A stretch of 64,000 bases of DNA from an uncultured Rhodobacteraceae bacterium (lineage in GTDB: Bacteria > Pseudomonadota > Alphaproteobacteria > Rhodobacterales > Rhodobacteraceae). Position numbers and translations under genes: made by a program. Shown here piece after piece: positions 6,557-25,314 of this stretch (position 1 is its first letter; the number at the start of each line of letters is the position of its first letter). A model generated the notes under the pieces. It made no database searches. It was not told the origin of the DNA and saw only the letters and a list, made by a program, of their open reading frames with translations. The stretch spans positions 23,641 through 87,640 of the forward strand of contig CANMIX010000013.1 in the NCBI GenBank assembly GCA_947497985.1, given 5' to 3'.

Positions 6557-7311
6557 GCTTTGTGTTGAAACATATCTCTGTAGCAAAGGCATTGGCTTTG
6601 TTGGCCTTTGCGTGCGTCGCCCCATTTGTGAGTTTGGAAAACCCCTTCACGCATTGGGCTTGGCTCATCTTCGGCTGTCTAGCGATAACCATCGCAGCAT
6701 TGGAAGTTACTCACAATCGATCGCAAAACCTAGCGCCGGAAGAACAGGTGCGACAGTATTTGCTCGATTTCGATGGTTGGAAAAAAACTGAAAATGTAGA
6801 GCACTACGTGGCAGATCCCCAGTTCAGTATTCGCGAAGTCGAGAGCGATGTCTCATTGTCGTTCCAGCAGGAGTGGACGCGTGGTGAAATAGGCCGTCAC
6901 TATGATCACGGGAACGCTGCATTTTGTCTTGGTGTTTTTCACGGCTCAACGCTACTTCAAAAAATCCATTTAGTGTTATTCGATGGTGGCAAAAAGATCG
7001 CCGTCTCGCCGGACTGGAGCGCCATCGGAAAGGGCCGGATCTACTACTATGTCGCTGACAGTATCGAATATGCCTATCAAAGATTTCTCACTCGAGAGCG
7101 TATGACTGATCACTCTAAGGGCATAAACAACCCGGTTGGGTCAGGTTCAATCGACATCCCAGTTTTTGAGAATAAGTCTGAGCTTGAAAAATTTATGTCT
7201 CAGTACAGCATCGAACCAGTCGACTCGACCTCTGATGAGGAAGAGCAGAACAGGCTGTTCTTAGAGAATTTAGAGAAATATCGTTGTTTTAAAGAAGGTT
7301 GGGCCGTCTAG
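6553..7311 (+). CDS. membrane protein, two N-terminal TM helices plus soluble domain, unknown function
   Basis: GTG start overlaps the MTase stop (GTGA, 6553-6556). TM segments ALALLAFACVAPFV and WAWLIFGCLAITIAAL. Clearly AT-richer than its neighbours. Confidence 0.55.
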   Translation: MSFVLKHISVAKALALLAFACVAPFVSLENPFTHWAWLIFGCLAITIAALEVTHNRSQNLAPEEQVRQYLLDFDGWKKTENVEHYVADPQFSIREVESDVSLSFQQEWTRGEIGRHYDHGNAAFCLGVFHGSTLLQKIHLVLFDGGKKIAVSPDWSAIGKGRIYYYVADSIEYAYQRFLTRERMTDHSKGINNPVGSGSIDIPVFENKSELEKFMSQYSIEPVDSTSDEEEQNRLFLENLEKYRCFKEGWAV

Positions 7312-9365
7312 TGTCAAATTCAAAATCTGTTCCCTCCGTTTCCGTCACGTACGCGCAGAACCGCTCTTCCACTACCTCGAACGAGCTGGGCATGCGAAAG
7401 ATGCAAGAGCGCGCCTATGAGATGCGGGGTGAGCAGTATCTGCTAATCAAGTCGCCGCCCGCTTCGGGGAAATCGCGGGCGCTGATGTTCATTGCGCTCG
7501 ACAAGTTACACAATCAGAGTTTGAAACAGGCCATCGTGGTCGTGCCTGAAAAGTCCATCGGGTCGAGTTTTAACGACGAGCCGCTGAGCAAGTTCGGCTT
7601 TTGGGCAGATTGGCAAGTGAAGCCGCAATGGAACCTGTGCAACGCACCTGGCGAGGATGACGGTAAGGTGGGGGCGGTTGGACGGTTCCTTGAGAGTGAT
7701 GGTCAGGTGCTGGTCTGCACCCACGCGACGTTCCGTTTTGCCGTCGATAAATTCGGGATCGAGGCCTTTGACGATCGGGTGATTGCAGTGGATGAATTCC
7801 ACCACGTCTCGGCCAATCCCGACAACAAGCTCGGCGCGCATCTGGGCACGTTCATTGCCCGCGACAAGGTTCATCTGGTTGCGATGACAGGGTCGTATTT
7901 CCGGGGCGACGCCGAAGCCGTCTTGTCGCCCGAGGATGAAGCCCGGTTTGAAACGGTCACCTACACCTATTACGAGCAGCTCAATGGCTATGAGCATCTG
8001 AAGACGCTCGATATCGGCTATTTCTTCTACACAGGGTCCTATGCTGACAGCATTCTGGAGGTTCTGGACCCCGCCGAGAAAACCATCGTCCACATCCCGA
8101 ATGTGAATTCGCGCGAAAGCACCAAAGACAAGCACAAAGAGGTCGAGCATATCATCGACAGCTTGGGTGAGTGGAAGGGGCTTGATCCTGATACCGGTTT
8201 CCAGTTGGTCGAAACGCCCGAAGGCCGCGTGTTGCGCATCGCTGATTTGGTGGATGATGAGGCGGCGAAGCGTGACAAGGTTGCGAGCGCCTTGAAAGAC
8301 CCCGCGCAAAAAAACAACCGCGATCACGTTGACATCATCATCGCGCTCGGGATGGCGAAAGAAGGGTTCGACTGGATCTGGTGTGAGCATGCCTTGACCG
8401 TTGGCTATCGTGCGAGCTTGACCGAGATCGTGCAAATCATCGGCCGCGCGACCCGTGATGCCGAAGGTAAAATGAAGGCGCGCTTCACCAACCTGATCGC
8501 GGAACCCGATGCGGGTGAAGAGGCCGTGACCGAGGCCGTAAACGATACGCTCAAAGCCATAGCGGCAAGTTTGCTGATGGAGCAGGTTCTTGCGCCGCGT
8601 TTCAACTTTACGCCCAAGACACACACGAGCGGACCTGTCGAAGGTTTCGACTACGGTGAAGGCGGCTATGATCCCAATAAAGAGAACGTCGGATTTGATG
8701 CGGCCACAGGGCAAATCCAGATGGAAATCAAAGGCCTTGCTGAACCCAAAAGCGAATTCGCGCGACGTATCTGTGATGAGGACCTGAACGAAGTCATAAC
8801 CGCATTTGTTCAGGACAAAACGACGATTGAACGCGGGCTCTTTGACGACGAGATGGTCCCAGAGGAGCTAACGCAAGTGCGAATGGGCAAGATTGTCGGC
8901 ACCAAGTTTCCAGAACTTAATGCGGAAGACCAAGAAGCCGTACGCCAGCATGCAATCGCGGCTCTGAACCTCACCCAGAAAGCGAAAGAAATCGCACTGT
9001 CAGATGCAGAAGCGGATGAAACTGGCGGCAATACAGCCTTGATTGATGGTGTGCGAAAATTTGCGATGGATGTACGTGAGTTGGATATCGATTTGATCGA
9101 TCGCATCAATCCGTTCGGCGAGGCCTATTCGATCCTTGCGAAAACCATGAGCGAAGATAGCCTCAAACAGGTTCAGGCCGTCATTTCGGCGAAAAAGGTA
9201 AAGCTTTCGCCAGATGAGGCCCGAGACTTGGCCAAACGTGCAGTCAAGTTCAAGCAGGAGCGTGGACGGTTGCCATCGATCACCTCTGCGGATGCCTGGG
9301 AAAAGAAAATGGCTGAAGGCGTCGCCTTCCTTGCGCGCATGAAGCAGGAGGCAGCAAATGTCTAA
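7299..9365 (+). CDS. DEAD/DEAH-box (DExH) superfamily-2 helicase
   Basis: Motif I SPPASGKS, motif II VDEFHH, motif III MTGS, motif VI QIIGRATRD. The start is either TTG 7299 or GTG 7311; the latter overlaps the upstream TAG. Confidence 0.8.
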   Translation: MGRLVSNSKSVPSVSVTYAQNRSSTTSNELGMRKMQERAYEMRGEQYLLIKSPPASGKSRALMFIALDKLHNQSLKQAIVVVPEKSIGSSFNDEPLSKFGFWADWQVKPQWNLCNAPGEDDGKVGAVGRFLESDGQVLVCTHATFRFAVDKFGIEAFDDRVIAVDEFHHVSANPDNKLGAHLGTFIARDKVHLVAMTGSYFRGDAEAVLSPEDEARFETVTYTYYEQLNGYEHLKTLDIGYFFYTGSYADSILEVLDPAEKTIVHIPNVNSRESTKDKHKEVEHIIDSLGEWKGLDPDTGFQLVETPEGRVLRIADLVDDEAAKRDKVASALKDPAQKNNRDHVDIIIALGMAKEGFDWIWCEHALTVGYRASLTEIVQIIGRATRDAEGKMKARFTNLIAEPDAGEEAVTEAVNDTLKAIAASLLMEQVLAPRFNFTPKTHTSGPVEGFDYGEGGYDPNKENVGFDAATGQIQMEIKGLAEPKSEFARRICDEDLNEVITAFVQDKTTIERGLFDDEMVPEELTQVRMGKIVGTKFPELNAEDQEAVRQHAIAALNLTQKAKEIALSDAEADETGGNTALIDGVRKFAMDVRELDIDLIDRINPFGEAYSILAKTMSEDSLKQVQAVISAKKVKLSPDEARDLAKRAVKFKQERGRLPSITSADAWEKKMAEGVAFLARMKQEAANV

Positions 9366-10551
9366 GGGGTTCACCGACGAGGATGATGCGCTGCTCGCGG
9401 AACTTGGTGTTGAAATCGAGACCAAGAAGATTGCCGCACGTACCCCGCGAGAGGAACGTATTATTGCGGGCTTTGAAGAAATCCAGAGGTTTGTAGACAA
9501 GAATGGGCGCGTCCCTGGCCATGGCGACGACAAGGATATCTTTGAACGCCTCTTTGCGACCCGGCTTGAACGGCTGCGTGAACTTGGCGAGGGAAGAGAT
9601 CTGATTTCAGACATGGACCATCAAGGTCTTCTTGCTGCTGAAAACCCGGTCGAAGATACTGCCCTCGAAGATCTTGATGACGATGCATTGCTGGCAGAGC
9701 TTGGCATCGCCGTAGAAGCGCCATCCATTTCGGAACTGAAACACGTTCGCTCCACGTCGGAGAAAAAAGCTGCCGAGGAGGTTGCAGGGCGTGAAAAGTG
9801 TGAAGAATTCGACACCTTTAAACCGCTCTTCGAGCAGATTCAGAAGGAACTGGATTCTGGCTTACGGGAAACGCGTAAGTTTGAGCTTAAGGCTGAGATT
9901 GAACCAGGCCGTTTCTTTATCGTCGGAGGGCAAAAAGCCTACGTCGCGGAAATGGGCGACATAGAGCTTACAGACCACGGCCGAACAGATGCACGCCTGC
10001 GGGTGGTGTTCGACAACGGCACACAAAGCAAGATGCTCATGCGGTCGCTTCAGCGTGCACTCAATGCTGATGGGGATGCCGGGCGCAGGATCACAGAGCC
10101 GAATGCTGGCCCGCTGTTTGCCGACGAAACCGCTGAAGGTGATGAAGCGAGCGGAACCATCTATGTGTTACGAAGCCGTTCAGATCATCCATTGGTCGCC
10201 GCAAACCGAGAGCTTGTTCACAAGATTGGCGTGACGAGCAATGACGTTGAGAAGCGCATTGCGGGCGCGCAGCTTCAGACAACCTTCTTGATGGCCAAGG
10301 TTGATGTTGTAGCAACCTACGATCTCTACAATATCAATCGCAGCAAGTTGGAAACACTTCTGCACCGGATTTTCGCGCCAGCCCAATTGGATATCGAGAT
10401 TCCCGATCGACTTGGTCGCCCGATGAAACCAAGGGAATGGTTCTTAGTGCCTTTGTTCGCCATCGAGGAAGCGGTTGAGCGGATCAAGGACGGCACGATT
10501 TCGCGCTATGTGTATGACCCGAGCAACGCCGCACTAGTTCTGCGAGACTAA
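9358..10551 (+). CDS. T5orf172/GIY-YIG-superfamily domain protein (putative nuclease)
   Basis: ATG overlaps the helicase stop by 8 nt. C-terminal half has GTIYVLRS ... HKIGVTSNDVEKRI ... REWFLVP, typical of T5orf172 (MUG113-like) domains. N-terminal half is acidic, with a duplicated DDALLAELG motif. Confidence 0.7.
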   Translation: MSKGFTDEDDALLAELGVEIETKKIAARTPREERIIAGFEEIQRFVDKNGRVPGHGDDKDIFERLFATRLERLRELGEGRDLISDMDHQGLLAAENPVEDTALEDLDDDALLAELGIAVEAPSISELKHVRSTSEKKAAEEVAGREKCEEFDTFKPLFEQIQKELDSGLRETRKFELKAEIEPGRFFIVGGQKAYVAEMGDIELTDHGRTDARLRVVFDNGTQSKMLMRSLQRALNADGDAGRRITEPNAGPLFADETAEGDEASGTIYVLRSRSDHPLVAANRELVHKIGVTSNDVEKRIAGAQLQTTFLMAKVDVVATYDLYNINRSKLETLLHRIFAPAQLDIEIPDRLGRPMKPREWFLVPLFAIEEAVERIKDGTISRYVYDPSNAALVLRD

Positions 10552-10825: not shown

Positions 10826-12331
10826 TTGACGCGAATAATTGACTTGGAATTTTCTGCGGCAAGGACTTATCTGGAAAAGCCAGAATGCTATTTCCGGTCA
10901 GACTTCCCCCCGTACATCAGCTTTGAAGCTATCTTAAAGGATACGGCAGCGGTATTGGGCAGTGATACCTACCTTGCCTTCCAAAAGCCAAAGCCCAACC
11001 GTGCCGTTGACATATCTGGTGTCAATTATGAACTTCTGAGCACCAAAGATGGTCGCTTTGCTTGGCGACCGTTCGAGCTTATACACCCAGCAATTTACAT
11101 GACATTGGTTGGGATTTTTTGCGAAGAGGCAAACTGGAAGCTGCTTCAAGAACGGTTCGAGGAGCTTCACTCAGGTATAGTAGAATGCACCAGCTTTCCC
11201 ATGGCGTCAAATGGGGAAGACAAACATGATGCTGTCCAAGTTCGAAATTGGTGGCTGCGATACGAACAGCGCTCGCTAGAGCTATCAATGGACTACACAC
11301 ACCTATTGAAAACGGATGTGTCTAATTGCTACGGGTCACTCTATACGCACAGCATTGCATGGGCTCTGCACGGATACGAGGCCGCCAAGGCAGCCCAGAC
11401 TGACAAGAACCTGCTTGGAAACCAGATCGATTTCCACATTCGCAATAGCCGATATGGTCAGACGAATGGAATCACCCAGGGCTCCGTTCTTATGGATATC
11501 GTCGCTGAGTTGGTTTTGGCGTACGTCGATCACCTGATCACTGATAAGATTGAAGGAGAAAAGGATTTTCATATCCTTCGGTATCGTGACGATTACAGCA
11601 TCTTCACAGTGAATGATCAGCGGGCGTTCGAGATCGTCAGAGTGATTAGCGACTGTCTCAGGAAGGTTGGAATGCAGCTCGGCGCGGCAAAGACTTCGGT
11701 GAACAGCAATATCATTGAAGGCGCTATTAAGCCAGAAAAGCTGGCAGGTGTGCAACTCGAAGACATGGATATCACGCAAGCTAAGACCGTTCAAAAGCAG
11801 CTATTGCGACTACACGCGTTTGCTCGTTTGTATCCCAACACTGGCGCAATCAAGCGGCTAGCGGATGCTGCGTTCCAAAAGATATCGAAGATCACTGAGC
11901 CCCCCGAAGATTTGGGCGTTCAGGTGGCGATTTCTTGTGATATCGCTGTGGTTTCGCCCGGCGCTTTTCCTGCCATATCGGGCATTCTTGCCAAGTTGAT
12001 TTCGCTTGCGCCAGAACCGGATCGCCCGGAGATGTGGGGAAGGGTCGCTGAGAAGATGAAGAGGATACCGCACAACGGTCACCTCGAGGTTTGGCTACAG
12101 CGGGTCACAAAGGCGAAAGGTGTTGAGCTCGCCTTTGCAAGCACCGAGCCGATTTGCGAGATAGTCAACGGTAAAAGTGTTCAGCTGTGGAACAATGACT
12201 GGACTAGCAGTCCCGATCTACTTGCTGCCCTAGATGTTTCCAAGATCGTTGTTAGCAGTCCGGGAGATCTCGACCCAGTTCCGGATACAAGTGAGCTTTC
12301 TCTTTTCCGTGAGTACGCTGAATTCTCCTAG
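10826..12331 (+). CDS. stand-alone reverse transcriptase, Abi/UG (defence-associated) type
   Basis: RT motifs TDVSNCYGSLYTHS, GITQGSVLMDIVAELVL, YRDD (11582-11593) and GAAKTS. About 170-aa helical C-terminal region. TTG start. No endonuclease, maturase-like or Cas domain seen. Confidence 0.75.
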   Translation: MTRIIDLEFSAARTYLEKPECYFRSDFPPYISFEAILKDTAAVLGSDTYLAFQKPKPNRAVDISGVNYELLSTKDGRFAWRPFELIHPAIYMTLVGIFCEEANWKLLQERFEELHSGIVECTSFPMASNGEDKHDAVQVRNWWLRYEQRSLELSMDYTHLLKTDVSNCYGSLYTHSIAWALHGYEAAKAAQTDKNLLGNQIDFHIRNSRYGQTNGITQGSVLMDIVAELVLAYVDHLITDKIEGEKDFHILRYRDDYSIFTVNDQRAFEIVRVISDCLRKVGMQLGAAKTSVNSNIIEGAIKPEKLAGVQLEDMDITQAKTVQKQLLRLHAFARLYPNTGAIKRLADAAFQKISKITEPPEDLGVQVAISCDIAVVSPGAFPAISGILAKLISLAPEPDRPEMWGRVAEKMKRIPHNGHLEVWLQRVTKAKGVELAFASTEPICEIVNGKSVQLWNNDWTSSPDLLAALDVSKIVVSSPGDLDPVPDTSELSLFREYAEFS

Positions 12332-12896: not shown

Positions 12897-13775
12897 ATGG
12901 CACCGAAGTTTGATGTTTATGCCCATGTCACCGAAACCATTATTGCAGAGATTGAGGCAGGCACTCCGCCATGGCGCAAGCCTTGGACTGGGAGCGCGTC
13001 CGGCATTGCCCTGCCGACCCGCCACAACGGGGAGGAGTATCGCGGAATTAACGTCCTGATGCTCTGGATCATGGCGGCCAAGCATGGCCATGTGTCCAGC
13101 CGCTGGATGACTTATAAACAGGCCCAAGAGCTGGGCGGTCAGGTCCGCAAAGGCGAAACGTCGTCGACAGTGGTGAAGTACGGGACGTTCACACGAGAGA
13201 ACGAGTTGGGCATCGAGGAAGAGCTGCCCTATGCGCGCGCCTATCGCGTGTTCAACGCGGATCAGATCGAAGGTTTACCGGAGGATTACTACATCCGGCC
13301 CGAGGCCCCGCGCGACCTTGGGACGGCCGAAGATCCTGAGCTTGAGGCGTTTTTTGGCCGGACAGGGGCGGAGATCCTCACCAGCGACGACCCGCGCGCC
13401 TATTACAGCCCCGCCAAAGATCACATCCATATGCCGCCGATCGCCACGTTTCACGATGCGGCAGGCTACTATGGGACTTTGGCCCATGAGGTGATCCATT
13501 GGACTGGCAGCGAAAAGCGGTTGGAGCGGATCAAGAAATTTGCGAACCGCGAAGCCTATGCCTTTGAAGAGCTGGTGGCGGAAATCGGTGCTTGTTTCCT
13601 TGGGGCTCAGATTGGCGTCGCGCCGGAGTTCGACCAAAGCGCCGCTTATGTTGAAGGTTGGTTGAAAGCGCTCAAAGAGGACAAAAAGGCGATTTTTCGG
13701 GCAGCGTCTGAGGCCCAGAAGGCAGCCGATTTTGTTTTGCAAGCAGCAGGTCAGAGCAAGGAGGTGGCAGCATGA
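12897..13775 (+). CDS. ardC: ArdC-like antirestriction protein (ssDNA-binding N-domain plus zincin metalloprotease)
   Basis: PPWRKPW motif near the N-terminus. HEVIHW (HExxH) in the C-terminal half. AAGGAGG RBS before the ATG. Confidence 0.85.
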   Translation: MAPKFDVYAHVTETIIAEIEAGTPPWRKPWTGSASGIALPTRHNGEEYRGINVLMLWIMAAKHGHVSSRWMTYKQAQELGGQVRKGETSSTVVKYGTFTRENELGIEEELPYARAYRVFNADQIEGLPEDYYIRPEAPRDLGTAEDPELEAFFGRTGAEILTSDDPRAYYSPAKDHIHMPPIATFHDAAGYYGTLAHEVIHWTGSEKRLERIKKFANREAYAFEELVAEIGACFLGAQIGVAPEFDQSAAYVEGWLKALKEDKKAIFRAASEAQKAADFVLQAAGQSKEVAA

Positions 13776-15229: not shown

Positions 15230-17024
15230 CGCCGTTGCCGCCGCGCAGCAGGCCTTCTTCGATCGTGACTGGAGCCGCATTCGCGGCAGCGTTCCACGCG
15301 CCCGTGCAAAGCAGATGGCGCGCGCGGCCATGGGCCATTCACCCGCGATCTTCAAAGCCATTCGCGACGGCGGCACACACAACAAAACGCAGCTGCGCAA
15401 CCAGCTGGAATACCTGACCACCAAGTCGAGCTTTATCATCGATAGCCGTGGCACCTATGACGGCCAAAGCGTGCTATCAGGCAAGGAGATCGAGCAGGTT
15501 ACGCGCCGGTTTTCCGCACGGTGGAATGAGGGGTTCCATCCCAAACTGGGACATACCTCGCACCTCTTGATGGCCTTCCCGATTGGCACGCGCGGCGAGG
15601 ATGTCGCCGAGATCACGCGCGAGATCTGCGAGCGTTTCTTTCAAGGTGAAGGCAGCCAATTTGACTACATCGCCGCCGTGCATGAGGACCGGGACCATCC
15701 ACACGCTCATATCGTCCTGAACCGGCGCAGCAAGGACGGTGAATTCTTTTTTCTGAAAGAAGGGCACCATTTCAACTACGACAGTTTTCGCGAGGCAATG
15801 GTTGAGGTGTCGGACCGCTATGGGTTGCGGCTTGAGGCGACCCGAAAGCTCGAACGTGGGATCACGACGAAGAGGCCAAGCGATGCAGACCAGCGTCGCG
15901 CGGAAGCCAAGGGCCAGAAGCTGACCGAACGTGAGCGCGTGGGGCCGGAGCTTGACCGTGCCTTGGCTGACGTGGCGCAGAACGCGCGGCTTTATCGCGG
16001 CCTGGCCGCCGAGGCCTCGCGCGAGAACCAGCATGACATTGCAGCAGCCTTGGAGAAGGCCGCGACGTTATTGGCGCAGGGCAAACCGATTGAAGCAGAT
16101 GGAAAGGTATATGGCATGGCCGAAGAACAGCATTCGTTTGATGAGGTCGTGGATGCCTTTCACGACAAGATCAACCAAGCCGAACGCATTGTGGCGGACG
16201 CCCCGGTGGAGCGGCGTGCCGCGCTGGAGCATGAGCTGAACGACATCTATCGCTCTTTGTCGCATCTCAGCCCAATGGGAACGCAGTCCCATACCTTGCT
16301 TGAGGATGCGTCCAAGAGTGGGATCTATTCGGCCGCGAACATTCAGGCCGACGCCCAAGTTGCATTGCAGGATCCAGCTCTTTCTGAACGTCTTCAGCAG
16401 GCTTTGAAAGGCACAGGCATTGACGCGCAGGATGTTGCGCGTCGCGTCGAAATAGGCGCGGGCAATGCCGCACTGGAGCGGCAATGGCTTGGCCAGGATT
16501 TGAAGGCGATTGCCGAGAAGGAAGGCTTTGACCTGTCACGCGCCGATCAGCTGGAGAAGGCGATCGACCGTCTCGACGAGGTGCACAGTGAGCTGGGCCG
16601 TGTCTTGGCCGATGCTGAGGTTCTCAAGGACAGTGGTTCGGTGGAGTCTGACCGGCAAGAAGCCATAATCGACCGGTTGCCGCCGACCACCTCTGACATC
16701 CTGAGCCGTTTGAGAGATGATCCGACCGCAGATCCATTCCGTAGCGATCTGGAACGCGAGACCTTGCGCTCCGAGCTGGAGGAACTGGTCGGTGAAGAAA
16801 ACACACCGGACTTGGCGATTGGCGATGAGACCACGCTGGAGGAACATATCGAAGACCGTCTGGACCGTCTCTATGCGGCCAAGGCCTATCTGCAGAGCGA
16901 TGCCGCTTTGGCGAACAGCGTGGCGATGGAGCATGTCCTCGACGAGATCGCCAATGAGGAAATAGATCTCCAACGCGAGCGGCATGTCGATGCCGACGGC
17001 GAAAAGGGCGTGACGCATGGGTAA
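15216..17024 (+). CDS. conjugative relaxase (VirD2/MOBQ-P-like)
   Basis: Histidine triad VHEDRDHPHAHIVL (HxDxxxPHxH). Preferred ATG at 15216 (MARNSAV), inside the ORF called from 15189. Long acidic helical C-terminus. Confidence 0.85.
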   Translation: MARNSAVAAAQQAFFDRDWSRIRGSVPRARAKQMARAAMGHSPAIFKAIRDGGTHNKTQLRNQLEYLTTKSSFIIDSRGTYDGQSVLSGKEIEQVTRRFSARWNEGFHPKLGHTSHLLMAFPIGTRGEDVAEITREICERFFQGEGSQFDYIAAVHEDRDHPHAHIVLNRRSKDGEFFFLKEGHHFNYDSFREAMVEVSDRYGLRLEATRKLERGITTKRPSDADQRRAEAKGQKLTERERVGPELDRALADVAQNARLYRGLAAEASRENQHDIAAALEKAATLLAQGKPIEADGKVYGMAEEQHSFDEVVDAFHDKINQAERIVADAPVERRAALEHELNDIYRSLSHLSPMGTQSHTLLEDASKSGIYSAANIQADAQVALQDPALSERLQQALKGTGIDAQDVARRVEIGAGNAALERQWLGQDLKAIAEKEGFDLSRADQLEKAIDRLDEVHSELGRVLADAEVLKDSGSVESDRQEAIIDRLPPTTSDILSRLRDDPTADPFRSDLERETLRSELEELVGEENTPDLAIGDETTLEEHIEDRLDRLYAAKAYLQSDAALANSVAMEHVLDEIANEEIDLQRERHVDADGEKGVTHG

Positions 17025-18909
17025 GGCGCGGATCGCACTTGGCGTCATGAGCTTTGCTCTTCTCGGCGCGATGCTGGGGTATGTTCTGGCGTCGGCCTTT
17101 CTGACATTCCGCTGGTTCGGGGTCGGGGCGGATATCGATTTCTTGATGCTGGCGCGCAGTTATGGAGTTCTTCGATCGACCCATCCGGGCGATATGCAGA
17201 TCGTTCACTTGATCGTCGGGATCAGTACCGGTGCCGGTGTCTTGCTCAGCGCTGTGCTGATGAACGAAGCACTGACCAAGTTCGGTGAAACCCACTGGCA
17301 GCATATGTCCGAGATGAAGCGGAACGGCTTTTTCGGAAAGCCCGGCCACGGCTTCGTCCTCGGCAAAATGGGCAAGCCCAAAAGTCGCAAACCCTTCGTT
17401 ATGTCTAAGGTGTTCCCCCATGCCCTGATCGTCGCCCCGACCGGACGCGGCAAAACGACGGGGTTCGTCATCCCGAACCTTCTGACCTATCAGGGCAGTG
17501 CGGTGGTGCTCGACGTAAAAGGCGAAAATTTCGAGGCAACAGCGCGCCACAGGGTAGCGCAAGGTGACAAGGTGTTCCGGTTCGCGCCAACAGATTGGAA
17601 AGATGGCCGCTCGCACCGGTACAATCCCTTGCTGCGCATATCGGCGCTGGAAAACGTCGACCGCCAGCAGATGGAGCTGCAACTTCTGGCTTCGCTGTTC
17701 CTGCAAGCAGATAGCGACCGCGTCCAAGGGCTCCTCGATGGCGGTATCGATCTGTTTGTGGCGGCAGGGCTTTTGGCGTTCGAGCGAAAGCGGCCTACCT
17801 TGGGTGAGATCTACCGCATCACAGCATCAGGCGGTGACAAACAGAAAGAGTATCGCCGCCGCGCCGACGAAGTCGTTAATCCAGCTGCCAAGCTGATCTT
17901 CATGCGCATGGCCTCGACCAACAACGACACGCTCACCTCTTATCTGTCGCTCTTGATGACGTCCGGCCTGAAGCAGTGGTCAAACCCCGCCATCGACCGT
18001 GCGACCGCAACGTCAGACTTCGATTTCCGCGACATCCGAAAATCGCCGTTTTCGGTTTATCTCGTGGTCGAACCGCTTATGGTGAAACCCCTCGCGCCGT
18101 TGATCCGCTTGTTCTTCTCGGACTTGCTGGCATCGCTGCAGGACCACGAACCCGGCAAGGACGAACCTTGGCCGGTGATGATCATGCTCGATGAGTTTAA
18201 CCGCCTCGGAAAAATGCCGATCGTTCTCGACAGCATCGAAACCCTGCGGTCCTACCGCGCCAACCTCGCGATCGTCACACAGACGATCCCGGCTTTGGAC
18301 GAGATCTACGGTGAAAATGCCCGGCGTGCCCTGCAGGGCAACGCGGGCATCAAGCTCTATCTGACTCCATCAGATGAAAAGACCATCGAAGAGCTCAGCA
18401 AAGCCGTAGGTAAAACAACCAAGCGCGTTGTGACCCGTTCGCGCTCGGTCGGTCGCAACCCTTTCGCCGGGCGCAGCATGTCTGAACGGACCGAAGAAAC
18501 CGCGTTGCTGCCCGAGGATGAGGCGCGGCGCATGGATCTTGATGACATCGTTCTGGTGGTCGACGCGCAGATGCCCGTCCGCGCCAAGCGGATCAAATAC
18601 TATGAGGATCAGTTCTTTAAGCAGATTTTCGACAAGCAGACCGGCGATCTGCCATATCCATCTGCGGGAGACCAGATGCGTGGACTGCAAGGGCAGATCA
18701 AGGCGCTGGAGGCGAAGATCGGGGCGTTGGAAGTGCCAAGAGGGGCTGTAGATGATGCCTTTGAAGGTGGTGGGAAACGGCGCGATGAGATTGAGGAATT
18801 GGCGTCCGGCAGTCAAAATGCACAGTCAGGTGATCAGGCCAGTTTGGGTGATTATCAGGCCGGAACTGAAAGGGTGGAACGGTTCATGGAAGAGGCTGCT
18901 CGGGGATGA
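17017..18909 (+). CDS. virD4: type IV coupling protein VirD4/TraG
   Basis: N-terminal TM helices. Walker A VAPTGRGKTTG. Walker B MIMLDEFNRLG. Overlaps the relaxase stop. Confidence 0.9.
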   Translation: MGKARIALGVMSFALLGAMLGYVLASAFLTFRWFGVGADIDFLMLARSYGVLRSTHPGDMQIVHLIVGISTGAGVLLSAVLMNEALTKFGETHWQHMSEMKRNGFFGKPGHGFVLGKMGKPKSRKPFVMSKVFPHALIVAPTGRGKTTGFVIPNLLTYQGSAVVLDVKGENFEATARHRVAQGDKVFRFAPTDWKDGRSHRYNPLLRISALENVDRQQMELQLLASLFLQADSDRVQGLLDGGIDLFVAAGLLAFERKRPTLGEIYRITASGGDKQKEYRRRADEVVNPAAKLIFMRMASTNNDTLTSYLSLLMTSGLKQWSNPAIDRATATSDFDFRDIRKSPFSVYLVVEPLMVKPLAPLIRLFFSDLLASLQDHEPGKDEPWPVMIMLDEFNRLGKMPIVLDSIETLRSYRANLAIVTQTIPALDEIYGENARRALQGNAGIKLYLTPSDEKTIEELSKAVGKTTKRVVTRSRSVGRNPFAGRSMSERTEETALLPEDEARRMDLDDIVLVVDAQMPVRAKRIKYYEDQFFKQIFDKQTGDLPYPSAGDQMRGLQGQIKALEAKIGALEVPRGAVDDAFEGGGKRRDEIEELASGSQNAQSGDQASLGDYQAGTERVERFMEEAARG

Positions 18910-19098
18910 CGGGCAGAGAGCGGTCGTTCGCTGCACTGGTATCGTTTCACTTGATTTGTTAGTTAAGCAGACATTCGCGGGAGGTCGTAATGTGGATCGG
19001 GAGTGGTCCCCCCTTCGTGTGGACTATGCTGACTTTCTCATCCAATTGCAGGTCTGGCAGTGTAGGCTTATTAACGGAATAGTTGGTGGGATTGTGAC

Positions 19099-21375
19099 AT
19101 GAAAAGGCTTGGAAATCTGTCACCTCCGGATTTTGAAGATCTGTGTCGTGATATCCTGCAAGCTGAAACCGGTCAGCGATTTTCTGCGTTTGGCGCGGGA
19201 GCTGATGGCGGTATTGATGGCAGGCATTCCAAGGGTCCTAAGTCGACCATTCTTCAGTGCAAGCATTATCTGAATTCAACGTTTTCTCAGTTGAAGTCGG
19301 CTTTGAAAAAGGAAGTGCCGAAGATCGATCTTCTGAAACCAAGTCGTTACATTTTCTTGACGTCTCAATCGTTGACACCTGCACGCAGCGACGAACTGGC
19401 AGATGTGTTAGGTGATCGCCTCAAACATTCGGAAGACATTTGGAGTGCGGAAGACATCGAGGCCGCGCTGAAGCGTCACCCCGACATCGAAAAGGCACAT
19501 CTGAAACTCTGGATGACCAGTACGGCAGTTTTGGAGAAGGTGCTGCAGTCAGGTCTTGAGGCCCACACAGCAGCGACCAAAGCTGAAATCTTGGACGAGT
19601 TGCGAGTCTATGTTCGTAACCCAAGTTTTGACGCCGCGTTTGAAACGCTCGAACGACATCGTGTCCTCGTTGTGTCTGGCCCGCCAGGGGTGGGAAAGAC
19701 CACGTTGGCCAAAATGCTCACATATCACTATCTCAATGACGATTGGCAGTTTTGCGCGATAAGATCTCTCGACGATGGCTTTGCCAAACTTGATGAGGAA
19801 AAGCGAACCATCTTCTTCTTTGATGACTTCCTTGGACAGATTGAGCTTGATCGCCAAGCACTTGTTCAACGGGATGGGCAACTTGCGAGATTTGTGAAAC
19901 GCGTTAGAGCTTCCAAAAACTCTCGTTTCATTCTTACCACGCGCGCACACATTTTTGAGGAAGCACGACGGCTTTCAGATCATATGGATGAGGGCCGCTT
20001 CCAGCTTTCAAAATTTCTGCTGGATGTCGGTCAATATACTCGCGCAATCAAAGCGCGCATATTGTTCAACCATCTTGCCGCATCAGATTTGAGTGGCGAA
20101 CACATAGAAGCTTTGCTTCAAGGTGACTGGCTGAAGAAGATCGTCGACCACCGAAACTATAATCCGCGCCGAATCGCTCATGCTGCCGCAGAGTGTCCTG
20201 AGGGCTTGGAAGCATCCGCCTATCCGACATTTGCTTTCAAGACCCTAGAAAATCCTGCTCCGATCTGGGCAAAGGCATACCGCAGTCTCAGTATACGCTG
20301 CCAGAACCTGCTTGTGGCTCTCTACTTCGGCAATCAGTATGGCCAGTCCATTGAGGTTCTGCGGGAAAACTACAACGCGATACACAATAAGATATGCGAA
20401 CACTATTCACAGCCGTCAAAGCCAGAGGACTTCGAAGAAGCTCTTAAATCACTCGAGTCTGGTTTTGTTGCAATATCGGATCAGCAGGTCCGGTTTGTGA
20501 ACCCATCAGTCCGCGACTTTCTCAAAGAGCATTTATCTGATGCAGATTTTCTGGGCCTGCTGCCGACTTTTTGTGTTCGAGCTGAATGGGCACAGAACCT
20601 ATGGATTCACTTGAAGCATAGGTTCCAGACCGATCCTGATAAACTGAAAACGCTGGCGCTGGCATTCTTCCAATTTGCAAACAAACTGGACCAAATTCCC
20701 AACTTCGCAAAGGTAAAGTCGAAACAGTACAATTATTGGTTCCGCGAACTAGTTGACCTTTCTATCTCTGAGCGCGGATCCCTTCTGTTCGACCTGTTTG
20801 AGCAATCTGACGACCGTAGCTTTCTCGATGCCGCGATCTCAGTTGTGAACAGCGAGGTTCTTGGGATCGAAGCGTCACGTGATTCCAGAGACCTACCGGA
20901 ACTTCATTGGAGGGTTTCCAACTTTGTCGATGATGATGTGGAGGGCAAGGCGGTCCTGCTCACGTCAGTTGAGGTCGCTCTGGTGAAGGCGATCGAAGCT
21001 GGCGTCCCGATGGACGAGTTGGTCGCAGTGAATGACGCCATAAACGAGTACCTTGATGAAGCTATTGATCTCGGCCCCATCGAGGACGCGATCAATTCCG
21101 CGATTGACTATGAGTTTGATGAGATTTCAGAAAGAATCTCTGACCTTTCGTCCGAAAGTGAGCTGAATGAGCACCTAGAGATGCTGGAGTTCATTGCACA
21201 ACACACTGATCGAAGTGCCGAGACTGCGAAAATGGTGATACTAGAGAAAATCAGTGAAAATGAAGTGCCTGACTATGATGACTACCAACCGAGTTCTCGC
21301 GGGCGAAGTAGTCACGTTGATGCAGAGTTTTCCGACAATGATCTCGTAAGCTTGTTCTCGACTCTTTCGAAATAA
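19099..21375 (+). CDS. Mrr-like restriction-endonuclease domain fused to a P-loop STAND-like NTPase (758 aa)
   Basis: N-terminus FEDLCRDIL...GAGADGGIDG...ILQCKHY (Mrr_cat-type core). Walker A VSGPPGVGKTTLAK. Walker B IFFFDDFLGQ. Helical, very acidic C-terminal region. AT-richer than the backbone. Confidence 0.7.
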   Translation: MKRLGNLSPPDFEDLCRDILQAETGQRFSAFGAGADGGIDGRHSKGPKSTILQCKHYLNSTFSQLKSALKKEVPKIDLLKPSRYIFLTSQSLTPARSDELADVLGDRLKHSEDIWSAEDIEAALKRHPDIEKAHLKLWMTSTAVLEKVLQSGLEAHTAATKAEILDELRVYVRNPSFDAAFETLERHRVLVVSGPPGVGKTTLAKMLTYHYLNDDWQFCAIRSLDDGFAKLDEEKRTIFFFDDFLGQIELDRQALVQRDGQLARFVKRVRASKNSRFILTTRAHIFEEARRLSDHMDEGRFQLSKFLLDVGQYTRAIKARILFNHLAASDLSGEHIEALLQGDWLKKIVDHRNYNPRRIAHAAAECPEGLEASAYPTFAFKTLENPAPIWAKAYRSLSIRCQNLLVALYFGNQYGQSIEVLRENYNAIHNKICEHYSQPSKPEDFEEALKSLESGFVAISDQQVRFVNPSVRDFLKEHLSDADFLGLLPTFCVRAEWAQNLWIHLKHRFQTDPDKLKTLALAFFQFANKLDQIPNFAKVKSKQYNYWFRELVDLSISERGSLLFDLFEQSDDRSFLDAAISVVNSEVLGIEASRDSRDLPELHWRVSNFVDDDVEGKAVLLTSVEVALVKAIEAGVPMDELVAVNDAINEYLDEAIDLGPIEDAINSAIDYEFDEISERISDLSSESELNEHLEMLEFIAQHTDRSAETAKMVILEKISENEVPDYDDYQPSSRGRSSHVDAEFSDNDLVSLFSTLSK

Positions 21376-21484
21376 CTCTCCTGCTCCAATGATTCTGCGT
21401 TTTCTCATAAAGGGCACTTGACTTAGCTTGTGGCGAACCAACAGCGGCCCATCGCTGTTCGGCATTTATAAGGACATTAGTTTA

Positions 21485-24187
21485 ATGGCATTTGAGGAAC
21501 TTATTACTTGGTCAGATCAAAAAGTACGGCCGGATTGGCAAAAGGATGCGCTTCGGCGGCTGGCGACAACAGGCGAGTTGAGCAAAGAAGACTTGTCGGA
21601 CCTACGAAAGGTTGTTGAGAAGGCAACAGAACTGATCGACGACGAGGTCGCTGCGGTTACTCCCCTAGCTGCGGAGTACCTATCTGATCCGGCAGCCGAC
21701 GCCCCACGCACAATTCTTGGTGCGATTGGACCTGTCCGTCGGGTAGACCGGCTAGCAGGCGACCAGCCTCCGATCAAATTCGCGAAAAATGGGATCACAC
21801 TTGTTTATGGTGCCAATGCATCAGGTAAGAGCGGCTACTGCCGAATAGCTAAACAGCTTTGCAGGTCTCTCAGTCCTCAAGACCTCAAAGGCAATGTTTA
21901 TGAGGCCGCCTCAGCCGACCCACCAGAAGTTGACCTTGTGTTCGGCATGGAAGGCGACGAACCCGATCGCCAAGAGGCAACCTGGCGACATGGCGATCCG
22001 TCTCCGGCAGAACTAGCAAGGATATCCGTATTCGATACGGCGACGGCGCGCGTTTACGTAGACAAAGACCGCAAGGTTGAATTCCTACCCTACGAGCTCG
22101 ACCTTTTGAACAAGCTCGCTCTGGCAGCAAAGGCGCTGGACGGTGATTTTGAGGTGCGGGAAAACGGGATCGATGCGGCGATCCGTACGCCACTGCCTGC
22201 TGGTTATACGGATGGCACCGCTGTCTCGCAGGCTCTTGCAAAACTCGTCCCTGAAACAGAGCTAGCCGATCTTCCCGATGAAGCGGGCCTGCGCGCGCTC
22301 TCCGTATGGAATGATGAAAAGGAGGCCGATCTCCAGAGCGTCAGCGATGAAATTCGCGATGATCCTAAGGAGCGGCTGCGGTCTCACAGATTGGCGAAGC
22401 AGGGGCTAGAGAATATAAAGACCGCGCTTTCCGGTCACCTTGGACTTCTTGCCGATGATGGCGTTGCCAAGATCAAAGATGCCCACACCGATATGACGAC
22501 AAAGGCCGAGGCGGCCAAGACAGCAGCCCAAGGTCTGGGAGAAGGGATGCCGATCCCGGAAATCGGTTCGGAATCCTGGCGAAAGATGCTGATCTATGCC
22601 CGCGACTTTGCCGGTGAAGCTTTCCCTGTGCGCGATGACCCCAAGCTGGCCACTGGCGAATCCTGCGTCCTTTGTCAGCAACCTTTGGAGGATGACGCAG
22701 CTTCACGGATGGCGAGGTTCGATGAGTATATTTCTGGGCGCACTGCCAGCGACAGTCAGAAAGCCACAGAAGACTACGAGGTGCTTGTCGCTTCGATCAA
22801 TGCTCTCCGCCTTGGCACGCAGGATCAAACCAAAGCGCTTCTTGGCGTTTATGGCGGGTTGAGCGATGACCATCAGGCTTTTGTCGATGAGATTACGCTT
22901 GGTTACCATGTTCTTGCTTCACGTCTTGAGGCGGTGAAGGCGATGATCGCAGCGGGCACTTTTGATGGGGCGGATGCTTTGGAAGCTGTCCAAGTCGATC
23001 TCATCCAAAAGATCGATGCAGCGCTTGAAAACCTGCAGGCGCAGATCGATGTTCTTGAAAACGCAGATGCCGATGAAGAGCGCATGAAAACGCTCGCATC
23101 CGAAAAGGCAGAGCTCGAAGATGCAAAGAAGCTGAGTCAGGAGATCGAAATTGTGGTCGCCCGGTTTAAGCAGCTCGTGGAGCGGCTCAAGATCAAAGAG
23201 GCGCGCAAGCTGTGTGCGTCAGGTCCCATTGCGCGCCAGCTCACGGCCCGTCGCCGTGTCATATTGACCAAGAGCCTGAAAACGCAGCTCACAGAAGAAC
23301 TGGAAACTCTCAAACTCTCGCATATTCCCATCGATCTCTCCGACCGCAGTGCGGGCCCTGACAGTGTTATTGAAGTTGGCCTGACTGCCCATCAGCGTGT
23401 GGCAAACAACAGCGATGTGCTCAGCGAGGGTGAACAGAGAGCGCTCGCGTTGTCATGTTTCCTTGCCGAACTGATCGAGGTTGGTGCCGAACACGGCATT
23501 ATAGTCGATGATCCGGTTTCCTCGCTGGATCACTCCCGAATGGAAGCTGTGGCAAAGCGGCTTGTGGCGGAGGCTTCGGCTGGCCGCCAGGTCATCATCT
23601 TTACGCACAATATCGTGTTTCATTACATGATGGAGAATGAGGCACGCCGTGCCGATATTCCCTGCCATACCGAATGGATGTCGAGTCTAGGTGGAACCAA
23701 ATTCGGGATTATTGATGACTCGGGTAAGCCGAACCACACCAAGAAGGCAAAGCAACGCATCGGCGAGCTCAACGAAGCTAAGGCTAAATTGTATAAGGAC
23801 GGTTATGATCCGGCGGTTCAGGAATTTCGCGATCCGCTCACGGCCATCTATACGCTAATGCGCGAAACCTGGGAGCGGATCGTCGAAGAAATCCTGTTCA
23901 ACGGTACGATCCAGCGTTTTCGTCCGGAGGTAATGACCCAAAGCCTAAAGCATGCTTGCTATGATCCCGCAGATGATTATCCGGCGATTTTCGAGGGCAT
24001 GAAGCGATGCTCGCATCATTCCGGGCACGATAGGGCGGCAGACTTGCCACAGGAGCTACCTGAAAAGGTAGATATTGATGCTGACCTGCAGGCCCTTGTC
24101 GAATTTCACAAGAAGGTCTCTGACCGAAAGGCCGTTCTCGAGAAAGGACATAGCTATGAGAAAGGTCCTGAGCCAGAGTTCCTTTGA
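21485..24187 (+). CDS. ABC/SMC-type ATPase with coiled-coil CxxC hook and RloC/PrrC-like C-terminal region
   Basis: Walker A YGANASGKSG (21809-21832). Signature LSEGEQRAL. Walker B IIVDDPVSSLD. H-loop FTHN. About 480 aa of coiled coil between the head halves, with CVLC at 22664-22675. Tail carries RETWE and KRCSHHSGHD. ATG 21485 is preferred over TTG 21428. Confidence 0.7.
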   Translation: MAFEELITWSDQKVRPDWQKDALRRLATTGELSKEDLSDLRKVVEKATELIDDEVAAVTPLAAEYLSDPAADAPRTILGAIGPVRRVDRLAGDQPPIKFAKNGITLVYGANASGKSGYCRIAKQLCRSLSPQDLKGNVYEAASADPPEVDLVFGMEGDEPDRQEATWRHGDPSPAELARISVFDTATARVYVDKDRKVEFLPYELDLLNKLALAAKALDGDFEVRENGIDAAIRTPLPAGYTDGTAVSQALAKLVPETELADLPDEAGLRALSVWNDEKEADLQSVSDEIRDDPKERLRSHRLAKQGLENIKTALSGHLGLLADDGVAKIKDAHTDMTTKAEAAKTAAQGLGEGMPIPEIGSESWRKMLIYARDFAGEAFPVRDDPKLATGESCVLCQQPLEDDAASRMARFDEYISGRTASDSQKATEDYEVLVASINALRLGTQDQTKALLGVYGGLSDDHQAFVDEITLGYHVLASRLEAVKAMIAAGTFDGADALEAVQVDLIQKIDAALENLQAQIDVLENADADEERMKTLASEKAELEDAKKLSQEIEIVVARFKQLVERLKIKEARKLCASGPIARQLTARRRVILTKSLKTQLTEELETLKLSHIPIDLSDRSAGPDSVIEVGLTAHQRVANNSDVLSEGEQRALALSCFLAELIEVGAEHGIIVDDPVSSLDHSRMEAVAKRLVAEASAGRQVIIFTHNIVFHYMMENEARRADIPCHTEWMSSLGGTKFGIIDDSGKPNHTKKAKQRIGELNEAKAKLYKDGYDPAVQEFRDPLTAIYTLMRETWERIVEEILFNGTIQRFRPEVMTQSLKHACYDPADDYPAIFEGMKRCSHHSGHDRAADLPQELPEKVDIDADLQALVEFHKKVSDRKAVLEKGHSYEKGPEPEFL

Positions 24188-24315
24188 TGTTGCGTCATTA
24201 GGCTATGCTGGTCCATCCCAATTGTCCGATAGAGAGAATTGCTGCGAGTTGCACCAATGTCAGCTTGCGGGGACCTAATTGTGGGGCGCTGAATGTCGGC
24301 TCAGGGCCGAAATCC

Positions 24316-25314
24316 CTATTCCAACCGCTTTGCCCTTTCAGCGACCCTCTGAACCATAGAAACAGTCGCACCGCCTGCCTGCCGTATCCCAGCCCCCGCG
24401 ATCTCAGCATTTGACCTGGTCCCAAAGCGAGCCCGCGCCCGTGACCCCTTGGTGCCGATCAATCCCTTTGCGAATCCACCCGGACCGGGAATGCTCGGCG
24501 GTCCGGCCATCATGAAGTTGCCTGAGATCGATCGCACGATTAGCGGGGTCGCGATGATCATGCCCCCTGCAAGGAACATCATCATGAAGAAGGGCACCAG
24601 TGCGCCGATGTTGCTTGCGCCTGACGGATCTCCGAGTTCCGTCATCAGCGAGCGCGACATTCCGACAACGGTGGAAAACACGCCTGCGATTACGAGGGGG
24701 TAGAGCGCGTAGGATACCGTGCTGGACAGCCAGCGGTGGAAATAGTCCTTGCTGACGTCGAACAGCGAAAGCGCGATCATGATTGGGGCGATGCCGATCA
24801 TGAAAGCCAGCATGATCTTTGCGAAGATCAGGACAAGGCCGCAGAGCGCGCCGATGACGCCCAGGAGGAATGCGCCGATCGCACCGATGAGGGCTCCGGC
24901 CATCCAATGCATGTTGTCACCGGCCGCGTTCAGGTAGTCGCCAAATTCCTCTATAAGATCGTCGAAGGCCCCGGCAAAGTAGGACGCGCCAGCCCCGCCA
25001 CCGCCAAGCCCCGCCACCATGCCGCCCGCGAGCTGGTCGAGCCCATTAATCAGCGCGCTGGTCACCGCATTGAATTGGACCCAGTTCATCGCGAATAAAG
25101 AGATCAGCATGAGCTTGAGGGCGAACCAGAAGGCGGTTCGCCCATCCATGGATTTGTACTGAAATACCATGTTGAGGAAGACGCCGATCACGGCGAGCGT
25201 GGAGGCGACCGCAACGATGCCGCCAAGCTGACCCGCGACGTTGCCAAATGTGGTTTGGGCCGCGTCTTCCAGAAAGTTGTCGGTTGTCTCAACCATCCAG
25301 GTGACGACGCCCAT
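24316..25314 (-). CDS. virB6: T4SS inner-membrane protein VirB6/TrbL family
   Basis: 332 aa, polytopic, Gly/Ala/Ile-rich TM helices. Last gene of the virB operon. Confidence 0.7.
   Translation of the reverse strand: MGVVTWMVETTDNFLEDAAQTTFGNVAGQLGGIVAVASTLAVIGVFLNMVFQYKSMDGRTAFWFALKLMLISLFAMNWVQFNAVTSALINGLDQLAGGMVAGLGGGGAGASYFAGAFDDLIEEFGDYLNAAGDNMHWMAGALIGAIGAFLLGVIGALCGLVLIFAKIMLAFMIGIAPIMIALSLFDVSKDYFHRWLSSTVSYALYPLVIAGVFSTVVGMSRSLMTELGDPSGASNIGALVPFFMMMFLAGGMIIATPLIVRSISGNFMMAGPPSIPGPGGFAKGLIGTKGSRARARFGTRSNAEIAGAGIRQAGGATVSMVQRVAERAKRLE

Follow-up and report, generated by a model that had tools for sequence, protein, structure and literature searches.

RloC-type proteins, known since 2008, are defined by PrrC-like ATP-binding cassette (ABC) motifs, by a coiled-coil/CX2C insert, and by a C-terminal Arg-X3-Glu-X36-52-His triad, each residue of which is essential (PMC2610378), and the HEPN Rx4-6H motif contributes the catalytic His of PrrC and RloC alike (PMC3710099). 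Avs5 is an experimentally validated SIR2-STAND anti-phage protein with an nSTAND3 NTPase (bioRxiv 10.1101/2025.07.08.663546). Lamassu, including the tested Lamassu-Mrr subtype, sets a nuclease effector gene (LmuA) beside a gene for an SMC-like ATPase (LmuB), to which most subtypes add LmuC; ABC-3C is an operon of an ABC ATPase, middle components and effectors; and the PDC entries of PADLOC are defence candidates found by “guilt-by-embedding” (bioRxiv 10.1101/2024.01.29.577857, Payne et al.). Here, we ask how these compare with a locus in 64,000 nucleotides of DNA from an uncultured Rhodobacteraceae bacterium (contig CANMIX010000013.1; this whole stretch is “the window,” and positions are counted from its first letter). 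The gap between the convergent conjugation genes virD4 and virB6 is filled there by two co-oriented genes on the plus strand, which we call gene 1 (a candidate Mrr nuclease-nSTAND3 protein) and gene 2 (a candidate RloC-like ABC ATPase).

The question is easily put: is this one immune system built from two proteins, or are these two immune systems that share a vehicle? We think it probable that the pair is a horizontally acquired defence cassette in which two autonomous, single-protein immune candidates travel together in the virD4-virB6 cargo slot, a DNA-targeting candidate joined to a probable tRNA-targeting one. Both families have already been catalogued, and the cassette would enlarge each of two known kinds, the RloC-like ABC-HEPN and the nuclease-STAND, by one member rather than make a new kind. 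The main parts are these:

17017-18909, plus strand: virD4 (Pfam T4SS-DNA_transf 5e-86, TraG-D_C)
18927-24309, plus strand: mobile two-gene block (megablast homology to other replicons)
19099-21375, plus strand: gene 1, 758 amino acids, candidate Mrr nuclease, nSTAND3 NTPase and variable C-terminal region; PADLOC PDC-S73 family (open reading frame, PDC-S73 match)
21376-21484, plus strand: 109-nucleotide spacer between gene 1 and gene 2 (sequence, DNA alignment)
21485-24187, plus strand: gene 2, 900 amino acids, candidate RloC-like ABC ATPase with coiled-coil/CxxC insert and nuclease-like C-terminal tail; PDC-S06, AAA_13 (open reading frame, profile matches)
24316-25314, minus strand: virB6 (TrbL/VirB6 2e-33)

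An earlier reading made from the sequence alone had described just this arrangement, convergent virD4 and virB6 with two same-strand genes 109 nucleotides apart between them, and the open reading frames (ORFs) and Pfam matches confirm it, as they do the positions of every motif it quoted for either protein. The ORFs of 18910-24315 include no third gene. Beyond the flanks, the backbone continues with a relaxase upstream of virD4 and with virB11, virB10 and virB9 downstream of virB6. The profile searches that the same reading proposed, with PADLOC and Pfam, gave each protein matches over its full length or above the family threshold.

For gene 1, the match is to PDC-S73 (PDLC05079; 4.9e-132, with residues 7-727 aligned to positions 9-732 of a model 752 long), and its homologues, more than 2,000 at E <= 1e-10, are nearly all of about 755 amino acids with an identical Pfam architecture. 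Its three regions are:

19099-19608, plus strand: residues 1-170, Mrr-type PD-(D/E)xK module with a helical extension (Mrr_cat, PADLOC match, invariant columns)
19609-20088, plus strand: residues 171-330, nSTAND3 P-loop NTPase (Pfam nSTAND3, invariant columns)
20089-21372, plus strand: residues 331-758, increasingly variable C-terminal region, presumed sensor (identity gradient, charge, invariant columns)

The proposal that gene 1 is an Mrr nuclease fused to a STAND NTPase holds up well. Both Pfam families score above their curated cut-offs, Mrr_cat on residues 6-94 (1.3e-7; 32.1 bits against 21) and nSTAND3 on residues 171-327 (8.7e-50; 168.9 bits against 27.2, covering model positions 1-154 of 155), and the motifs FEDLCRDIL, GADGGIDG, ILQCKHY, GPPGVGKTT and IFFFDDF are all present. 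Across 23 homologous sequences, down to 38% identity, the putative catalytic residues do not change: E13, D36, D40 and Q53-x-K55 in the nuclease part, of which D36, D40 and Q53-x-K55 fit the catalytic D...(Q/E)xK of an Mrr-type nuclease, and in the NTPase part, Walker A GPPGVGKTT (19678-19704), the DDF of Walker B FFFDDF, and R282. At the C-terminus of the same sequences, F744-x-D746...L752-F753..L756 is invariant as well.

What lies between is another matter. The sequence-only reading had gene 1 end in about 480 strongly acidic residues; the region beyond the nSTAND3 match is in fact about 430 residues long, has no family match, and is strongly acidic only in its last 200 or so (residues 561-758, with 48 D/E against 13 K/R and a pI of 4.05). 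Identity drops from the N-terminus to the C-terminus, at 92/97/86/83/79% in the closest relative and about 65/70/48/38/35% in the next tier, which looks like what one sees in STAND proteins whose sensor evolves fast. Mrr_cat, nSTAND3 and this conservation gradient are our grounds for regarding gene 1 as Avs-like with the Mrr nuclease as its effector.

Avs-like, that is, in layout, and by sequence apparently outside Avs1-5. With Avs5, or AVAST type 5 (SIR2-nSTAND3-repeats), gene 1 shares nSTAND3, an apparent tripartite order of effector, NTPase and variable C-terminus, and the habit of being a single gene, but its effector is an Mrr nuclease and that of Avs5 is a SIR2 NADase. Avs4, as Gao et al. 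reportedly described it in 2020/2022, carries its Mrr-like nuclease N-terminal to a STAND NTPase, with TPR. Avs4 proteins are, however, about double the length of gene 1, which has no PADLOC AVAST match. We considered membership of Avs1-5 and rejected it, since no AVAST model stands among the 12 PADLOC matches at E <= 1 (nor does gene 1 match LmuA) and since gene 1 has Mrr where Avs5 has SIR2. Should it prove active, gene 1 would exemplify nSTAND3 immunity in which a nuclease takes the place of the SIR2 effector.

How might such a protein work? We infer, by the logic of its layout, that the variable C-terminal region would recognise a trigger, that the nSTAND3 NTPase would then oligomerise, and that the Mrr-type nuclease domains, so brought together, would cut DNA and abort the infection. 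Two side observations belong here. The end motif, F-x-D-(5)-L-F-x-x-L (residues 744-758, 21328-21372), caps the most variable part of the protein and is kept down to 38% identity; autoinhibition or docking are possible roles for this peptide. At the other end, residues 1-170 resemble the PADLOC Argonaute-associated model Aga_TIR-PNTD1-PNTD2 far more strongly than they do Mrr_cat (8.8e-53 on residues 4-169), and this module shows 41-54% identity (tblastn; matches H37-H47) to the N-termini of TIR proteins on rhizobial and Roseobacter-group plasmids.

The protein of gene 2 is 100% identical to a database protein labelled Tritonibacter multivorans, and we assign the replicon to that species on this ground. 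It matches PADLOC PDC-S06 (PDLC04891) at 2.4e-164, with residues 3-881 aligned to positions 4-856 of a model 858 long; Pfam AAA_13 (PF13166) scores 2.1e-18, or 66.9 bits against a gathering threshold of 36, and SMC_N and AAA_21 match also. We place its start at ATG 21485, the alternative TTG 21428 being unsupported, with all homologues beginning MAFEEL. The parts that matter are:

22091-23308, plus strand: residues 203-608, helical (coiled-coil) insert of about 400 residues dividing the ABC head (model secondary structure, Foldseek)
22664-22675, plus strand: C394-V-L-C397, candidate zinc hook (invariance, position in the model)
23642-24184, plus strand: residues 720-900, four-helix tail, candidate PrrC/RloC-type HEPN anticodon nuclease (invariant columns, model)
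23861-23875, plus strand: R793-x3-E797 in the tail (invariant columns)
24005-24031, plus strand: R841-x6-H848-D849 in the tail (invariant columns)

The motifs from which a split ABC head with a long coiled coil had been proposed (GANASGKSG, LSEGEQRAL, IIVDDPVSSLD and FTHN, with CVLC in the coil and RETWE and KRCSHHSGHD in the tail) are all there, and the proposal is sustained. In 16 sequences reaching down to 26% identity, and again in 101 closer ones, the ABC head keeps Walker A GANASGKSG, LSEGE, DDP with SLDH, and T707-H708 without exception. An AlphaFold2 model of the full protein (predicted local distance difference test, pLDDT, 81.7) has a helical domain at the N-terminus and an ABC head that a helical insert divides in two, and Foldseek matches it to an SMC head with coiled coil (4.7e-6) and to Mre11-Rad50 (4e-5), as well as to condensin, cohesin, MukB and JetC. 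The suggestion that CVLC sits in mid-coil, like the hook motif of Rad50 and RloC, fares equally well: C394, L396 and C397 are invariant in the same sequences, and helices 363-379 and 403-417 bound the short nonhelical stretch that contains the CxxC, roughly halfway along the insert, with arms of about 177 and 206 residues as judged from the order of secondary structure.

The tail invites the most careful wording. Modelled alone, it has four long helices (pLDDT 82.6), and its invariant residues in the same sequences are Y789, R793, E797, F812, R841, H848 and D849, among them all four that the sequence-only reading had picked out (R793, E797, R841 and H848). R793-X3-E797-X50-H848 falls within the RloC triad definition, and R841-x6-H848 fits the HEPN Rx4-6H motif. 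A profile of the tail, run against 1.84 billion representatives, collects 1,757 clusters (50% identity); the best 150 matches all lie at the C-terminus of proteins of about 860-920 amino acids (shorter ones look like fragments), and the tail therefore appears specific to this architecture. Searches of Protein Data Bank (PDB) sequences with the gene 2 and tail profiles returned generic P-loop or ABC heads only, and nothing for the tail.

We conclude, from sequence and model, that gene 2 is probably an RloC-like ABC-HEPN protein of a divergent, already catalogued subfamily; the tail owes its nuclease assignment to motifs and a compatible fold rather than to demonstrated homology or activity. The likeness to RloC of Geobacillus kaustophilus (804 amino acids; Davidov & Kaufmann 2008, PMC2610378), which we have drawn through its published description, extends to the ABC motifs, the helical insert with central CX2C, the triad, Pfam AAA_13, and the character of a single-gene system seldom linked to restriction-modification (R-M) genes. 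Gene 2 is about 100 residues longer, however, with an extra N-terminal helical domain of about 75 residues and a longer insert, and it reads S-G-H where RloC reads S-H before and at the His. In RloC itself, mutation of the triad abolishes toxicity, whereas mutation of the hook makes the protein hyperactive. PrrC of E. coli likewise follows an ABC NTPase with a C-terminal RNase bearing the catalytic Arg-x3-Glu...His, but it has no coiled-coil/zinc-hook insert, and its gene lies within a type Ic R-M locus. By analogy with the Geobacillus protein, the Rad50-like ABC head, coiled coil and CxxC zinc hook of gene 2 would monitor DNA or DNA damage, ATP binding and hydrolysis at the head would control a PrrC/RloC-type HEPN RNase, and that RNase would cleave tRNA anticodon loops and so halt translation. 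Should gene 2 prove active, the RloC-type anticodon nucleases would extend to a large divergent subfamily, that of the clusters that share its tail.

Are the two genes, then, obliged to be together? In the wider family they are not. A search of 72,556 plasmids found 39 records with a relative of gene 1 and 208 with a relative of gene 2, and among the matches listed, the only records common to both are two near-identical cassettes. Relatives of gene 2 at 26-79% identity were solitary in six of six sampled contexts, some amid housekeeping genes and one beside tmexCD1 in Klebsiella; the solitary relative at 79% identity has 899 amino acids and unchanged Pfam families. Several relatives of gene 1 also stand alone, one of them between trpS and an aminotransferase gene. 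A scan of genome contigs with the gene 1 alignment, which works through generic P-loop patterns, recovered at least five true relatives. In Pseudovibrio, a gene 1 relative that is 89% identical is followed not by gene 2 but by a 67-residue ORF and an 822-residue LmuB-like ATPase, and DNA homology to the window stops about 35 nucleotides past the gene 1 stop codon. Moreover, no region of gene 1 covaries with the type of partner. Because linkage fails beyond the close clade, because solitary relatives exist, because the partner can be swapped, and because nothing covaries, we argue that the linkage is not obligate and that an obligate two-component system is improbable. The sequence-only reading had left one system or two adjacent ones open; the balance leans to two adjacent autonomous genes.

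The block moves as a unit. Positions 18927-24309 are 91% identical (megablast) to pP24_b of Phaeobacter inhibens, where they lie in another genomic context, with repABC, an integrase gene and scpB as neighbours, upstream of an AbiEii gene, and outside any type IV secretion system (T4SS) context. A Thioclava plasmid matches 19724-24309 at 89%, again beside virB6, with gene 1 truncated by IS1247, and a metagenome scan yielded three contigs, all copies of the same cassette. The cassette is thus horizontally mobile among Roseobacter-group plasmids and marine metagenome contigs. The virD4-virB6 slot, for its part, holds IS66, GAF and aldehyde dehydrogenase genes in one related Rhodobacterales plasmid and genes for DUF4143 and a 1,334-residue protein in another. 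Conjugative plasmids of the marine Roseobacter group carry presumed defence cargo in this slot, and ours is a compact mobile example. Two observations on the slot can be set beside this: related plasmids (L041 and L042 in our numbering of loci) use the space behind the coupling-protein gene (virD4/traG) for variable cargo, and at the comparable site of an integrative conjugative element (L032), a gene 1 relative and an AriA/OLD-like ATPase gene lie between the coupling-protein gene and the T4SS genes.

Base composition, too, sets the pair apart. GC content is 0.490 for gene 1 and 0.544 for gene 2 (0.515 and 0.563 at third codon positions), against 0.576 for virD4 and 0.597 for virB6 (0.693 and 0.751), and both genes are foreign to the conjugation backbone by this measure. 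The description of the whole insertion as AT-rich needs trimming, however: it stands for gene 1, but gene 2 is only mildly so, and the two are unlike each other.

In catalogues, the two proteins are strangers as well. PADLOC matches both at full length as single-gene candidates, PDC-S06 and PDC-S73, and treats them as unrelated singles. In the literature that we searched, PDC-S06 appears in lists only, or once in a correlation with resistance; we found no mention there of PDC-S73, nor of its adjacency to PDC-S06 or, repeatedly, to ABC ATPases. Kinship with Lamassu or ABC-3C, which had been raised for the pair, finds no support. Lamassu does place a nuclease effector gene beside an SMC-like ATPase gene, but gene 1 carries a P-loop STAND NTPase and gene 2 carries a presumed effector tail of its own; we rejected membership because gene 1 has no LmuA match, because gene 2 matches LmuB at only 3.5e-11 (against the far stronger PDC-S06), and because there is no LmuC. 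The cassette has two genes only.

We would be poor advocates of two autonomous genes if we did not gather what weighs against them. Every close relative with gene 2 keeps the gene 1-gene 2 pair in tight linkage and in common orientation, so that the proposal of linkage is right among close relatives even as it generally fails among wider homologues. In 12 of about 24 independent contexts, a relative of gene 1 has some ABC/SMC ATPase as its immediate neighbour (loci L003, L004, L005, L006, L011, L022, L026, L027, L028-L031, L032 and L048). A second, independent pairing of the two families exists on plasmid NZ_CP120372.1 of Sinorhizobium numidicum (L048:1816-6205), where a 701-residue PDC-S06 protein (PDLC04889, 8.5e-296) is encoded 56 nucleotides upstream of a gene 1 relative (about 35% identical), on the same strand and in reversed gene order. 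The recurrent adjacency and the Sinorhizobium pairing together hint at functional coupling. For the parts themselves, the C-terminal sensor of gene 1 is a presumed one. The HEPN fold of the gene 2 tail, compatible as the motifs and the four-helix model are with the HEPN-like tail that had been proposed, is without statistical support in Foldseek, where the best E value is 0.29 (not significant) and the HEPN structures 1wol, 7bxo, 2hsb, 6m6u, 3o10 and 4nqf (E 0.3-2) turn up amid unrelated helical bundles; and the PADLOC PrrC model (1.6e-8) aligns to the ABC part of gene 2, residues 646-724, and not to the tail. Finally, PDC-S06 and PDC-S73 are both still candidate families.

Some of these points feed a different explanation: that the two genes form one functional module, in which the Mrr-nSTAND3 protein is an exchangeable partner of ABC/SMC ATPases, as effector, guard or second layer. 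We hold this to be somewhat unlikely, and we have tried to give it its due. The ATPases found beside gene 1 relatives are:

PDC-S06: two contexts, the window clade and the 701-residue subfamily of Sinorhizobium numidicum (L048)
PDC-S46: two contexts
LmuB-like: three contexts, two of which share a conserved ORF of 65-67 residues
AriA/OLD-like: two contexts
GajA: one context
Ppl/TrlF-like: one context
YhaN-like: one context

The adjacency has signs of an operon, being co-directional in 9 of the 12, with gaps of 10-118 nucleotides in seven and a small ORF between the genes in two; a Vibrio pair keeps its 10-nucleotide spacing across three genomic contexts; the LmuA, LmuC, AriB and GajB models matched none of the neighbouring ORFs tested; ABC ATPases are rare elsewhere in these loci; and the Pseudovibrio lineage has its partner swapped exactly at the intergenic boundary. 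Against a module stand the relatives of either gene that occur singly, the lack of any covarying part in gene 1, and the make-up of the proteins, of which gene 2 already comes with a presumed effector and gene 1 with an NTPase switch. With partners drawn from five or more unrelated ABC families, a specific physical interface is unlikely. ABC ATPases are, besides, among the commonest defence-island genes (bioRxiv 10.1101/2024.01.29.577857), and part of the enrichment is therefore to be expected.

One might go further and imagine PDC-S73 proteins as a module that can be combined with ABC/SMC defence ATPases of many unrelated kinds, in a hitherto unrecognised two-gene STAND-plus-ABC class in which the STAND protein might act as effector or as guard of the ATPase; the window pair would then be one case of it. 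The candidates for exchange would be RloC-like PDC-S06, PDC-S46, LmuB-like, AriA/OLD-like, GajA and Ppl-like proteins. We consider such a class unlikely, and yet the chance that Mrr-nSTAND3 genes and ABC ATPases associate as modules is the chief interest that the locus still holds; if that adjacency is functional, it would be a new mode of joining STAND and ABC modules in immunity.

Some smaller neighbours of the gene 1 relatives may be recorded at this point. The ORF of 65-67 residues (L022:8508-8711 and L027:8379-8576), which has no family match, sits between the gene 1 relative and the LmuB-like ATPase in two loci whose gene 1 relatives are 55% identical and whose ATPases are 43% identical, which points to a three-gene arrangement of long standing. 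Two more distant relatives have convergent PD-T7-5 genes downstream (L013:10349-11509, L044:6348-7505), and DUF4238 genes flank two others (L003:3741-4733, L012:10545-11513).

A third possibility would demote gene 1 from a trigger-activated STAND protein to a type IV-like, NTP-dependent restriction enzyme that attacks modified or foreign DNA directly. Its intact Mrr_cat catalytic residues would suit that role, RefSeq labels its homologues “restriction endonuclease,” and in a search of PDB sequences, which otherwise gave the gene 1 profile generic P-loop matches only, its P-loop weakly matches McrB (E 0.006). The McrB and AAA+ matches cover the P-loop alone, however, whereas the nSTAND3 match spans the full model; the apparent tripartite layout, less and less conserved toward the C-terminus, is of the STAND-sensor type; and the N-terminal module is also fused to TIR effectors in Argonaute-associated genes. 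We judge a directly acting restriction enzyme very improbable. Least credible of all, to the point where we hardly believe it, is that these are not immune genes, gene 2 being an SbcC/Rad50-type repair or plasmid-maintenance ATPase and gene 1 a nuclease for conjugation or plasmid competition, for although gene 2 resembles Rad50 and SMC in structure and both genes lie inside a conjugation gene cluster, the cassette has no Mre11/SbcD-like partner, Rad50 and SbcC do not have the conserved R-x3-E...H tail, the backbone can dispense with the cassette (to judge from the other cargo in related plasmids and the Phaeobacter copy outside a T4SS), and both families are catalogued as defence candidates.

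Two autonomous immune candidates are still the reading that we favour. The cassette also has two noncoding features:

18910-19098, plus strand: intergenic stretch ahead of gene 1, presumed to hold its promoter (sequence)
21440-21459, plus strand: hairpin AACAGCG-GCCCAT-CGCTGTT in the spacer (sequence)

A sigma-70 consensus scan of 18910-19098 gave zero matches, and promoter and terminator consensus scans of the spacer gave nothing useful, with totals no higher than expected from shuffled sequence. The sequence ahead of solitary gene 2 relatives shows no alignment to the spacer of the window, and for that reason a promoter brought along by gene 2 itself could not be shown. The spacer hairpin has a perfect 7-base-pair stem without a T-tract and is mostly kept in the Phaeobacter and Thioclava copies.

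The cassette keeps company of its own kind, for the replicon is defence-rich. Upstream of it lie a HipA toxin gene (1929-3230) and, within 3833-10551, a gene for an MmeI-family type IIG restriction-modification protein of 907 amino acids (REase_MTase_IIG 3.8e-289, PADLOC), behind which three co-oriented ORFs overlap one another, encoding 252, 688 and 397 amino acids, the first with a weak match to PDC-S50 and the last with a T5orf172/MUG113 domain; the type IIG gene and the three ORFs may form a larger operon. ArdC is encoded at 12897-13775, and an AbiP2-type defence reverse transcriptase (PADLOC 2.2e-169) at 10826-12331, in a second low-GC patch (GC about 0.49-0.51).

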